Assembly (NCBI GenBank): GCA_963785725.1
Contig: CAWAWS010000007.1
Span: 800,001-864,000, forward strand
Length of the DNA: 64,000 bases
Origin: an uncultured delta proteobacterium
GTDB lineage: Bacteria > Myxococcota_A > Polyangia > Palsa-1104
Direction: 5' to 3'
Positions within the stretch are counted from its first letter, which is position 1; every line of letters starts with the position of its first letter. Under the pieces are notes generated by a model. It worked only from the letters and a program-made list of their open reading frames with translations, searched no databases and was not told the origin of the DNA. Of the stretch, positions 7,096 through 18,508 are shown piece after piece. A program made the translations under genes and the position numbers.

Positions 7096-9906
7096 TTATT
7101 TAGCTTCGCTTGCCAAGAGCGCGACCGGGAAGTCGCCGAACAGCGCGCGTAAATCCAGGGTGGCGCCGGCGTTGACGCGGCGGCCGGTGACGGCGTCGAC
7201 GTAGCGGCCGCGCAGCCGCTCGGGCAGCTGCACGCGGCCGCGCCAGTCGATCGCCTTGCCGCCGGCGCGATCGGAGAGCTGCAGCGTCAGCCGCGGCACG
7301 ACGCACAGCGCGTGCTCGTCGGCGTGCACGCGCGCGAAGGCGACGACGTGGCCGGCGTCCTCGCCTTCGGCGCTCAGCGCCACGTATTCGCCGTCGGAAA
7401 ACAGCGGACCGCGCGCGCGCCGCAGCCGCAGCGCCTCGCGCACCAAGAGGAGCTTGGCGCGACCGTCGACGAGCGCGCTCGGCTGCGCCAGCTCGCGCGC
7501 CAGCTGCAGCCGCGAGGCGTCGCCTTCGGCAAGCCGCCGCGTCAGGCCGTCGAGCAGCCTGCGCCGCAAGGCGTAGTCGACCGGGCGGCGATTGTCGGGA
7601 TCGACGAGCGACAGGTCCCACAGCTCGCAGCCTTGATAGACGTCGGGCACGCCCGGCGACGCCACCTTCAGCGCCACCTGCGCCAGCGACGACAAGCGCG
7701 CCGCCGCCGCGATGCGCCGCGCAAACGGCGTGAAGTCGGCGAGGAACGCGCGCGACGACAAGAGCTGCTGCGCGAACGCGCGCGTCGCCTGCTCGTAGGC
7801 TTCGTCGACGTTGGTCCAGCTCGAGTGCACCTTGGCCTCGCGCAGCGCCTTCTCGAGATAGAGCCCGATGCGCTCGCGATATTCGTCGCTCGGCCCATGG
7901 TCGGGTGGGTCGGGAAAGGTGCCGATCAGTGTCTGATAGACGAGCAGCTCGTCGTTGGCGTCGGGCTGAATGTCGCCTTCGTGCTCGCTCTTGAAGGGCG
8001 CTGCTAGCTTGGCCCAGGTGCGCAGCCGCTCGGCCCATTCGCCCGGCGCCTCCGACAAGGCGTCGATGCGCAGCCGCGTGTCTTCGCCGCGTTTCGTGTC
8101 GTGCGTCGCGGTCGTGTTCAGCGAGCCCGGCCAGTCGCGCAGTCGCGCGCTGTTCTGCGCGTGGAACTCGGCCACGCTGTACCCGAACTTCTGCGGGTCG
8201 CCGCCCACTTCGTTGAGCGACACCAGCCGCTGGTAGATGTAGAACGAGGTGTCCTCGATCGCCTTGGCCGTCACCGGGCCCGACACTTGCTGCAGCTTGC
8301 GCACGAACTCGAGCGACTCGGGCGTCGGATCTTCGAGCAGCAAGATCGAGCGCAGATAGTCGTAGATCGAGCGGTTGAGATCGCGCGAGCCGCGCTTGGC
8401 CGCGCGAATCGTCGCTTCGATGTATTGCCGATCGCGCTGCTCGATGGACGCGCCGTCGTTGCCTTCGACGTAGGTGCGATAGATCGGCAGCCGCGCCACG
8501 TATTCGCTCAGCGCCTTGGTGAGCGCGTTGAGCGTGAAGTCGCGCGTGCGGCGGTTGCCCTCGCTCAGCCGGTTGAGCCGATTGCCGAGCACGTTCACTT
8601 CCGACGCCATCGACGAGCGCATCAACACTTTCTTCTTCTCGTAGACGAGCTGCGCGAAGTTGTGGGCGCTGCCGGTGAAGCGCGCGTACAGCTCGTCGAA
8701 GGCGCCGGCGTTGCGGCTGTCGACGAAGAGGCCGTTGACGGCGTTCAAGAATTCGTAGCCGGTCGTGCCCGCGACCTGCCACGACGAGGGCATCTTCTCC
8801 GTGCCTTCCAAGATCTTCTCGACGATGACGTAGAGCCCGTCGAACTCCTGCTGCAGCCGCCGGAAATAGGCCGACGGCGCGTACAGACCGTCGGGATGGT
8901 CGATGCGCAGGCCGGTCACTTTGCCGTCGCGGATGAGCTGGAACACCAGGCGATGGGCGTCGTCGAAGACCTGCGGATCTTCGACGCGAATGGCCGCCAG
9001 CGTGTTGATGTCGAAGAAGCGGCGATAGTTGATCTCCTCGCCGGCGACGCGCCAATGGGCCAAGCGATAGGCCTGCGCGTCGAGCAGCTTTTCCAAAAGG
9101 TCGAAGCTGCGCGGGTCGCCCGGCCGGCCGTTGAAGATCGTGATCATCTCGTCGGCGTAGCGGGCGATCGGCGGGCACGCCTCGAACAGCGCCGCCAGCC
9201 GTCGCTTGGCCACCTCTTTTTCGCGCGCGCGCTCCTGAACCTTGTCGGGCTCGGGCTCTTCGCGCGGCGCCAGCTTGCCGAGCGACGTGAGGATGCTCTC
9301 GAGCTCCTGCATGTTGACGTCGTTGACGCCGAGCTCGGCGCGCAGGCGGTCCAGCTCGTGGCCGAGCAGAAACGGCACCCAGCGCGGCGTAATCGGAAAG
9401 TGGTTGTCGTAATAGTCGACGAAGAACGCGCCGCCCGAGCGCGACAGCTGCAGCTCGCCGCGCTCGAGCACGTCGCCGAACTGATCGCCCAAGATCGGCA
9501 CCAGCACCTTGGCCGTCAGCTCGCGCTTGATCGGACCCCAATCGACGTCGAAGTAGGGCGCCGAGACGCTCGACGGGCCGTTCTCGAGCACGTCGAGCCA
9601 GCGCGCGTTTTGCGGGCCGATGCCCATGTGGTTGGGCACGAAGTCGCACAATTGGCCGAGGCCGGCGGCTTTGACGGCGGCGCACAGGTCGTCGTAGCCG
9701 TCGGCGCCGCCGAGCTCGTCACGCAGCGCGTTGTGATCGGTGACGTCGTAGCCGTGCGTCGAGCCTTGCGCCGCGGAAAACGGAGGCGAAACATAGACAT
9801 CGGTGACGCCCAGCTCGGCGAGATAAGGCACGAGCTTCGCGGCTTCCCGAAAGCCGAACCGGGGTGTGATCTGCAATCGATAGGTCGACAGTGGCCGGCG
9901 GCGCAT
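7096..9906 (-). CDS. treY: Malto-oligosyltrehalose synthase (GH13)
   Basis: STYRLQ, GSTHGYDVTDH, DFVPNHMG, EEINYRRFFDIN, GLRIDHPDGL, TATHDTKRGED and LSLVDPDNRRPVDY. Confidence 0.96.
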   Translation of the reverse strand: MRRRPLSTYRLQITPRFGFREAAKLVPYLAELGVTDVYVSPPFSAAQGSTHGYDVTDHNALRDELGGADGYDDLCAAVKAAGLGQLCDFVPNHMGIGPQNARWLDVLENGPSSVSAPYFDVDWGPIKRELTAKVLVPILGDQFGDVLERGELQLSRSGGAFFVDYYDNHFPITPRWVPFLLGHELDRLRAELGVNDVNMQELESILTSLGKLAPREEPEPDKVQERAREKEVAKRRLAALFEACPPIARYADEMITIFNGRPGDPRSFDLLEKLLDAQAYRLAHWRVAGEEINYRRFFDINTLAAIRVEDPQVFDDAHRLVFQLIRDGKVTGLRIDHPDGLYAPSAYFRRLQQEFDGLYVIVEKILEGTEKMPSSWQVAGTTGYEFLNAVNGLFVDSRNAGAFDELYARFTGSAHNFAQLVYEKKKVLMRSSMASEVNVLGNRLNRLSEGNRRTRDFTLNALTKALSEYVARLPIYRTYVEGNDGASIEQRDRQYIEATIRAAKRGSRDLNRSIYDYLRSILLLEDPTPESLEFVRKLQQVSGPVTAKAIEDTSFYIYQRLVSLNEVGGDPQKFGYSVAEFHAQNSARLRDWPGSLNTTATHDTKRGEDTRLRIDALSEAPGEWAERLRTWAKLAAPFKSEHEGDIQPDANDELLVYQTLIGTFPDPPDHGPSDEYRERIGLYLEKALREAKVHSSWTNVDEAYEQATRAFAQQLLSSRAFLADFTPFARRIAAAARLSSLAQVALKVASPGVPDVYQGCELWDLSLVDPDNRRPVDYALRRRLLDGLTRRLAEGDASRLQLARELAQPSALVDGRAKLLLVREALRLRRARGPLFSDGEYVALSAEGEDAGHVVAFARVHADEHALCVVPRLTLQLSDRAGGKAIDWRGRVQLPERLRGRYVDAVTGRRVNAGATLDLRALFGDFPVALLASEAK

Positions 9907-17469: not shown

Positions 17470-17916
17470 TCAGAGAGGCCGCTTGGAGTAGCCGAGCCGC
17501 GTCCACGTCGTGAAGCCGGCGCGTTCGTAGACGGCGCGTGCGACCTCGTTCTCGCGGCGCACCTGCAGATGCATCGCGTGCGCGCCCGCGGCTTTGGCGA
17601 TGGCGACCGCCGCGTCGAGCAGCCGGTGCCCATTGCCGCTCGCGCGCGCCGACGCCACGAGGTACAGCTCGGTCAGCCAGGCGTCGCGCCCGCCATATTC
17701 GAGGTCGTAGCCGAACGTCACGAGCGCATAGCCAATCGTCGCGCCCGCCGCTTCGCCGATGACGAGGCGCCCCAAGTGATTGTCGGCCGCCAGCACCGGC
17801 ATCATCGCCGCCTTCATCGTGTCGCGCGCGAACGGGATCGCCTCGATGCGATTGAAGTCTTCCATCAGGTCGAGCAGCTGCTCGGCGTCTTCCGCGACCG
17901 CGATGCGCGCGTTCAT
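17470..17916 (-). CDS. GNAT family N-acetyltransferase
   Basis: LTELYLVASARASGNGHRLL acetyl-CoA motif A; N...ARAVYERAGF. Confidence 0.88.
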   Translation of the reverse strand: MNARIAVAEDAEQLLDLMEDFNRIEAIPFARDTMKAAMMPVLAADNHLGRLVIGEAAGATIGYALVTFGYDLEYGGRDAWLTELYLVASARASGNGHRLLDAAVAIAKAAGAHAMHLQVRRENEVARAVYERAGFTTWTRLGYSKRPL

Positions 17917-17936: not shown

Positions 17937-18284
17937 CTAGCGGTTCGCCGGGTCGATTGGCGCGGCCGCTTTGCAGGCGAAGCCCATCACCACCGGCCCG
18001 TCGCGCGTGTCGGTCGGCGTCGGTCGCCAGCCGCGCGCCAGCCGCTCGGCGAGCAGCGAATCGGCCGTCGGCCGCGAGCCCTGCACGGCGACCGCCGTGA
18101 TCGCGCCCAGTCAGGTCGTGTCGTAGACGAGAAAATGCGCGCCCGCCGCGATGACGACGTCGTGCGTGTACTCGTCCTGCGTGATCACTTCGAGCAGCGC
18201 AAACCCCAGCGCGCCGCAAGCTTGGATGGCGTCGCCGAGCGTCTCGTGGTGGCGGGCGATCGCGAGCAGCGCGTCGGGCGTCAT
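17937..18284 (-). CDS. Candidate selenoprotein of unknown function (115 aa, TGA at 18113-18111 read as Sec58)
   Basis: MTPDALLAIARHHETLGDAIQACGALGFALLEVITQDEYTHDVVIAAGAHFLVYDTT-U-LGAITAVAVQGSRPTADSLLAERLARGWRPTPTDTRDGPVVMGFACKAAAPIDPANR-TAG. Frame is open with GC-rich third positions past the TGA, a SECIS-like hairpin follows, and the TAG lies 20 nt before the GNAT start. Confidence 0.72.
18084..18099 (-). promoter_or_regulatory. Bacterial SECIS-like hairpin
   Basis: UGA + 11 nt (CUGGGCGCGAU) + CACGGC-GGUC-GCCGUG: a perfect 6-bp stem with a G-led GGUC loop starting 18 nt after the UGA. Confidence 0.7.
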
Positions 18285-18331
18285 GCTCGATGAAACGCGC
18301 GCACGCGCACGAACCTTCCGCGTGTGCGCTA

Positions 18332-18493
18332 AGTACCTCGCCACAGTGATTTTGATGGGTGCCCGGCGAGGATTCGGCGTTCAGGGCGAGGCGCGACGAC
18401 GAAGGAATACTGTCTGTATTTCGAGAAGGAGCAACGAAGTCATGGACGTCGAAGACCGGCGCGGACCGGTCGAAATCACTGTGGCGAGGTACT
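18332..18493. mobile_element. MITE-like fold-back element (162 bp)
   Basis: Perfect 21-bp terminal inverted repeats AGTACCTCGCCACAGTGATTT (18332-18352) and AAATCACTGTGGCGAGGTACT (18473-18493); nested internal stems; no transposase. Confidence 0.7.
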
Positions 18494-18508
18494 AGGCCAC
18501 GCGTCCCG

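Follow-up and report, generated by a model that had tools for sequence, protein, structure and literature searches.

Recoding of UGA as selenocysteine (Sec) is a standard system, and further selenoprotein families are reported regularly. Of the small bacterial selenoproteins known, most have a thioredoxin fold. At the level of decoding, the closest described parallel to the locus considered here is Escherichia coli fdhF. This gene has an in-frame TGA at codon 140, followed after an 11-nt spacer by a hairpin with GGUC at its apex. Decoding of the FdhF type needs selA, selB, selC and selD. At the level of the protein, the closest relatives in kind are the small redox selenoproteins of a 119-family catalogue. 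The available text of that source lists Prx (TxxU), GPx-like (UxxT), AhpD-like (CxxU), SELENOW-like, UXX-star and Tso families (PMC13188914). Its Fig. 2 legend describes a bacterial SECIS as a hairpin 16-37 nt from UGA, with a loop of 3-9 nt, G in the first two places, a stem of 4-16 bp and an energy of at most -7.5 kcal/mol (PMC13188914).

We analysed a 64,000-nt stretch of DNA from an uncultured delta proteobacterium, hereafter called the window. It contains a small gene interrupted by TGA, and the interrupting codon very probably specifies Sec. The features discussed below are as follows.

17937..18284, minus strand: predicted 115-residue selenoprotein coding sequence, ATG to TAG, with one in-frame TGA (25 of 61 related genomes have homology to both halves).
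18111..18113, minus strand: TGA, codon 58, predicted Sec in the context YDTT-U-LG (TGA in 171 of 172 distinct loci and in all 11 further loci; 18 of 30 full-length homologs have Cys).
18084..18099, minus strand: SECIS-type hairpin, 6-bp stem, GGUC apex, loop from 18 nt past the TGA (covariation across 117 distinct sequences; third positions frozen at codons +5 to +8; agreement with published criteria).
18159..18179, minus strand: QDEYTHD loop, residues 36-42 (E38 and D42 kept in a deep subfamily and a sister family; predicted turn between strands 1 and 2).
17973..17975, minus strand: Cys104, a candidate for an optional resolving cysteine (165 of 172 loci have a Cys after G[HYF][AS]; 7 of 11 further loci lack it).

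The reading frame and its hairpin

The original prediction was of a frame over 17937..18284 that meets TGA at codon 58 (18113-18111) and continues for 57 sense codons, with normal GC3 bias, to a TAG. Every coordinate holds. The frame opens with ATG at 18284, and its TAG is at 17939-17937. GC3 is 0.89 before the TGA and 0.93 after it, and GC2 downstream of the TGA is high (0.65). The TAG lies 20 nt ahead of the ATG of a GNAT gene at 17916. The GTG start chosen by the ORF caller (18344) falls within a repeated element, and the starts of homologs agree with the ATG at 18284. A contig from a related strain spans 17969-18182 with 12 differences, none of those listed being at 18111-18113. The read sets listed for this DNA (best share 0.20) include no RNA run. 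The window copy may be weakened, because it has Gln at position 68 where 89 of 94 members have Trp.

A CACGGC-GGUC-GCCGUG hairpin was said to begin 11 nt past the TGA, at 18099-18084, and to resemble that of fdhF. It is present as described. The likeness to fdhF also stands: both have an in-frame UGA, an 11-nt spacer and a GGUC-apex hairpin. They differ in detail. In fdhF a bulged U places the apex one base further out (loop at +19), whereas the window stem is an unbulged 6 bp with its loop at +18. The FdhF protein itself is unrelated to the window family. With a 4-nt loop (GGUC), 6 bp, 17 nt between UGA and loop, and an energy of -9.3 kcal/mol in isolation, the window hairpin falls within all four ranges of the published legend (PMC13188914). 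A 42-nt fold forms the hairpin. A 64-nt fold starting at the TGA favours a different structure (z -1.66; 9 of 200 shuffles as good). Since the longer fold is weak against shuffles, energy alone is no proof of the hairpin.

A loose hairpin rule was unspecific, being satisfied at 80 of 6162 stops in this genome. We also used a strict rule, derived from the window hairpin, with a loop-closing base at +18, GU and at least six further Watson-Crick pairs. Applied to stops with coding-like upstream frames in this genome, it selected 2 of 3212 TGA, 0 of 3294 TAG and 0 of 1535 TAA codons. The two TGA codons belong to the window gene and to an AhpD-like CxxU gene. Because the rule was written from the window hairpin, the second match is the informative part of the scan.

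Comparative data also bear on the hairpin. Across 117 distinct main-type sequences, 96.3% of cells are paired. Two-sided compensatory changes occupy 90 of 819 cells, a count that is inflated by kin as cells are sequences and not events, compared with 34.6 in shuffles; none of 500 shuffles was as high, and slid controls gave 0-6. The bases flanking the invariant GU alternate between G-C (70) and A-U (45). At four-fold sites, third-position entropy falls to 0.28-1.0 over codons +5 to +8, compared with 1.18-1.82 at other codons. These alignments indicate that the hairpin is under selection.

About a quarter of the family (42 of 160 distinct sequences) uses a second SECIS register, with a bulged hairpin 7 nt further downstream. 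This group has Ser at codon +8, derives mostly from Kofleriaceae and their relatives, and shows 7 two-sided changes among its 42 sequences. One of its branches also has a CxU motif. Two registers in one family amount to a natural experiment on the requirements of SelB.

The genome encodes the full Sec machinery. Matches to selA (557.5 bits), selB (303), selC (tRNA-Sec; 73.4) and selD (332.7) are all over cut-off; hence, all four genes that FdhF-type decoding needs are present. The selD match contains no stop. In this genome, which is 88% complete, no formate dehydrogenase alpha subunit reached cut-off (best E 1.3e-12). The AhpD-like CxxU gene has a TGA and a hairpin of the same geometry as the window gene (L216:660-662; G000:C5:206959) and is of a catalogued selenoprotein type, according to the available text of PMC13188914. 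A SelL-related UxxC gene also has a TGA and a hairpin, with a match under its cut-off (L217; G000:C14:116649).

The codon at position 58 across genomes

Homology extends across the TGA. We found matches spanning both of its sides in 25 of 61 related genomes, and every one of the 25 loci with an aligned codon 58 has TGA there; one more locus consists of a C-terminal fragment. In GTDB genomes, a scan confirmed 389 of 404 stretches, the best 80 of which all have TGA. Its search pattern was QDE[YF][TN]HDV, which partly accounts for the invariance of this motif among those stretches. A metagenome scan seeded with Cys homologs confirmed 464 of 597 stretches; among the best 80, 79 have TGA and one has TGC. 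Over 172 distinct loci the site codon is TGA in 171 and TGC in one, and a further 11 loci, from other families of the phylum, have TGA without exception. Record titles and tree labels assign the sequences to Myxococcota, Acidobacteriota and Gemmatimonadota, with single genomes of Planctomycetota and Pseudomonadota.

The gene is found together with selA. Among the 61 relatives, 50 have selA. It is present in 24 of the 25 carriers, and the exception has selB and tRNA-Sec. The other 10 selA-negative relatives all lack the gene. In a sample of 401 genomes of the phylum, 23 hold the full TGA form and 3 hold fragments; selA occurs in 22 of 22 full carriers besides this genome. These counts should be read with the knowledge that kin are not independent and that selA is common among the relatives. 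In one genome (G433) the gene lies about 3.3 kb from selA, beyond ribosomal protein genes, which is a single case and no pattern (L218, C71).

Protein databases hold the family mostly in pieces. A profile search of 1.84 billion representatives returned 858 proteins at E <=0.001. Of 126 partial matches listed, 59 stop exactly at YDTT or FDTT. All ten N-terminal halves that we checked are on record as truncated hypothetical proteins, seven of them with RefSeq WP accessions from Nannocystis and Polyangium. We chose 30 full-length homologs, leaving out two near-duplicates, three partial and three truncated sequences. The residue at the site is Cys in 18, Arg in 3, Ser in 3, Trp in 2, and Leu, Gly, Pro or a gap in one each. 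The original prediction had named Trp, Arg or Gly here as the mark of a nonsense change or base-call error. On this point the outcome is marginal: 12 of the 30 have neither Sec nor Cys at the site. Five of six non-Cys forms checked are one-member clusters. The sixth, an Arg form, occurs on 20 contigs and clusters with halves ending at the site. Most non-Cys forms are one base from TGA, and we read them as probable decayed copies or errors. Decay is visible in two genomes: about 6 kb separates the halves in G033 (L215:2012-2263 and 7835-8524), and in G366 the frame breaks shortly past the hairpin (L213:2069-2167). The Cys forms include two small clades with several distinct members each. On a quick-search tree, with 78 of 166 branches open, they correspond to at least 2 and up to 7 changes.

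Two other accounts of the TGA have to be weighed against Sec. One is that it arose by sequencing error or by a nonsense change confined to this genome. Its probability is next to nil, since homologs refute it: the same codon is TGA in genomes of several labelled phyla, isolates included. The other is that TGA is a true stop, or is recoded otherwise, be it as Trp, by plain read-through or as the junction of two coupled genes. Storage of the halves as separate database proteins fits this account, as do the few full-length homologs with Trp, Arg, Leu, Gly or Ser, including the Arg form on 20 contigs. We nevertheless consider it highly improbable. A true stop should vary, and the gene's own terminal stops do so over the 172 loci (TGA 72, TAG 54, TAA 41, off contig 5). 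The original prediction had pointed to homologs ending at DTT with TAA or TAG as contrary evidence, and none of the 172 loci has either codon at the site. Both halves form one domain in the predicted model. Furthermore, a true stop leaves the covarying hairpin and the link with selA without reason. Recoding as Trp was rejected because conserved Trp residues are encoded by TGG (codons +10 and +28, in 92 of 92 and 97 of 97 cases) and many genes of the same family end in TGA. The proposal of Sec at codon 58 is instead supported by two-sided homology, TGA or Cys at the site, a covarying hairpin and Sec machinery both here and in carriers.

This is a widespread predicted selenoprotein family that the public records checked cut in half, those of cultured Nannocystis and Polyangium included. 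Cys counterparts are rare among DNA loci (1 of 172). For this reason, searches seeded with Cys homologs would tend to miss the family, which suggests that more such families exist.

Related families and the question of novelty

Weak stop-free matches in the 401-genome search led to an all-cysteine sister family. Its members are about 141 residues long, with motifs QGEFHHD ... TNCNGG ... RCP ... FDPC, three invariant Cys and two His (loci L198-L212). Compared with the window family, the sister profile gave a probability of 97.5 and an E of 7e-12 over 96 columns, with Cys63 on Sec58. Cys is kept at the aligned site in 15 of 15 sister loci. The hairpin rule picks out 1 of these 15, compared with 147 of 165 window-family loci. 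At least 2437 database proteins belong to the sister family. They are 'hypothetical' wherever named, the 120 listed carry no Pfam domains, and searches of Pfam and NCBIfam gave no family match. The sister family's predicted model is confident and arranges its elements in the same order as the window-family model; its fold search gave a best Z of 4.5, under background, and no Foldseek match with E <0.001. For the more than 2400 unannotated sister proteins, the Sec site points to the likely catalytic residue. The sister family occurs in 26 of 401 genomes, and 14 of 19 tested carriers have no selA match. Mutual exclusion of the two families was considered and rejected: they share no genome (26 and 26 of 401), with about 1.7 shared genomes expected, which is not significant.

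A deep subfamily is intermediate towards the sister family (L226-L231, L234-L236). It has the motifs MDE[YF]T[IL]D and TT-U-NA[GVA]. Neither His41 nor, in most members, Cys104 is present. All 11 further loci have Ile or Leu in place of His41, and 7 of them lack Cys104. Conservation of Glu38, of Asp42, of a Thr or Asn preceding the site, of Pro72 and of Arg81 extends through the main family, deep subfamily and sister family alike, which is not the case for His41 and Cys104.

The family had been proposed as possibly undescribed, and no match was found in the catalogues and libraries checked. In Pfam and NCBIfam 20.0, matches to any one family were limited to at most 2 of 124 members (best E 0.0028). 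PHROGs and an Atlas search with a Cys homolog gave no usable match, Rfam gave two chance matches alone, and a plasmid search gave no copy. No longer fused form was present among 8000 scored, a weak negative. Neither motif nor domain ID matched the 119-family catalogue as far as its available text goes (PMC13188914). The family resembles the small redox selenoproteins of that catalogue in its size, single Sec, Sec/Cys pairing in homologs and truncation by annotation. It differs in that 124 members lack the Pfam or NCBIfam matches of those families, in the absence of CxxU, UxxC and TxxU motifs, and in a predicted helix-helix-four-strand meander.

The available texts of deep-Sep (PMC12013277) and bioRxiv 10.1101/2022.07.06.499078 yielded no description of the family. 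BSepDB, by its available text, searches for known families alone (PMC13326102). Full-text literature searches by family motif, and for selenoproteins of Myxococcota, myxobacteria or Anaeromyxobacter, gave no description either; what they returned for Acidobacteria was unrelated. According to the available text of PMC13188914, Deng et al. 2026 report unvalidated candidates from >44,000 genomes, and these might include the window family. We conclude that the family is absent from the catalogues checked. The main risk to novelty lies in the selenoprotein surveys of Deng et al. 2026 and of Haft and Tolstoy 2025.

Predicted fold, proposed function and genomic surroundings

We modelled the protein from 124 sequences (pLDDT 94.7). 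In the prediction, two helices precede a four-stranded antiparallel meander, which is followed by a third helix, a short hairpin and a short helix with Cys104. The best VIA-align matches were OsmE (Z 5.8, rmsd 2.8, 76 aligned) and a BLIP-like protein (Z 5.1, rmsd 4.2, 73 aligned), against a stated background Z of 7-8. Foldseek found no match with E <0.001 in the PDB or among viral models, and the best E in a PDB sequence search was 1.3. The predicted order of elements is unlike that of thioredoxin, and the top VIA-align rows include no thioredoxin-fold entry. The modelled fold is likely non-thioredoxin. BLIP-like, OsmE and SmpA folds (PDB 4dm5, 3d4e) share with the model its helices on a four-stranded antiparallel meander. 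However, identity is 4-5%, Z is within background and residues 89-105 are uncovered. By their titles, 4dm5 and 3d4e are lipoprotein or inhibitor-like, whereas the window protein has no signal or lipoprotein leader.

The original prediction saw no CxxU motif, and this extends to the family. The context is DTT-U-LG[AG], with no CxxU, UxxC, TxxU or UxxT; CxU occurs in 15 of 94 members. Judged by strand order, the model would bring the Sec turn to the end of the sheet where the QDEYTHD turn lies. We propose a selenolate nucleophile flanked by carboxylates, with a role in thiol or peroxide redox chemistry, because of this family's conservation and because most uncharacterised selenoproteins likely have redox functions, a general statement in the available text of PMC13188914. 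If recoding is granted, a redox role is modestly probable. Overall, the evidence tilts slightly towards a cytoplasmic selenol redox enzyme of 115 residues that would act alone, likely on a non-thioredoxin fold. In outline, SelB would bind the GU-tipped hairpin and bring Sec-tRNA to codon 58. Sec58 would lie in the turn between strands 3 and 4 of the four-stranded meander. Glu38 and Asp42 may orient or protonate the substrate, and the Sec58 selenolate would attack a peroxide, disulfide or sulfoxide. Oxidised selenium could be resolved by Cys104, or by a cellular thiol in members lacking Cys104.

Two other roles for Sec58 compete with redox catalysis. In one, which we think rather unlikely, Sec58 and the residues Asp37, Glu38, His41 and Asp42 would bind a metal or metalloid, and the protein would be a chaperone, sensor or detoxifier. 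The conserved residues are typical ligands, and strand order brings their two turns to the same sheet end. The three invariant Cys and two His of the sister family would also suit a metal site, and the available text of PMC13188914 includes metal-binding and organometallic-lyase selenoproteins. Against this, His41 gives way to Ile or Leu in 11 of 11 further loci, no metal-resistance gene recurs beside the gene across lineages, and no plasmid copy was found. It is a little less probable again that Sec serves as a non-redox nucleophile, in a hydrolase or transferase with a Sec-His-acid arrangement, or as part of a protein-binding surface of the BLIP-like or immunity type. The best structure matches, albeit weak, do point this way (OsmE, Z 5.8; BLIP-like, Z 5.1), as do Atlas SUKH-type clusters scoring 0.90-0.91 for the sister family with 126-139 of 256 features in common. 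Yet a Z below 8 is background for the tool, the best sister Z is 4.5, and the counts of common features lie below the tool's mark of 170. No toxin or substrate gene is a conserved neighbour. A SUKH (SMI1/KNR4) immunity protein in particular finds no Pfam match, no conserved neighbour and weak Atlas look-alikes.

Returning to the selenol redox enzyme, its predicted non-thioredoxin fold may make new selenium chemistry possible. A broader picture can be put forward tentatively, and we doubt that every part of it will stand together. The protein would be the first selenoenzyme on an uncharacterised fold, with a Sec-Glu-Asp site unlike those of thioredoxin, AhpD, Msr or molybdoenzymes. Sec would be ancestral and dominant, and the three-Cys sister family would do the same job without the Sec system. 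The gene would be one of few that keep the Sec system in myxobacteria without formate dehydrogenase.

Shared gene neighbours occur within lineages only, with none beyond close kin; neither GNAT nor TamB accompanies the gene throughout the family. A MITE-like element (18332-18493), about 165 bp long and ending in 37-nt terminal inverted repeats, lies immediately upstream of the gene. The genome has about ten near-full further copies, and related-strain contigs skip 18330-18508. A GGAA-N19-GTT sequence at 18319-18294 on the minus strand, 9 nt before the ATG, is kept in two relatives of the genus. It resembles the ECF promoter consensus. An ECF-sigma-like promoter was rejected because such sequences occur at 5 of 165 loci compared with 104 of 9026 background windows, the genome has no second copy, and upstream regions of the family are richer in TANNNT-like words. 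Finally, a TATAAT hexamer lies at 17930-17925 on the minus strand, 8 nt before the GNAT start. This suggests that the GNAT gene has its own leaderless promoter.
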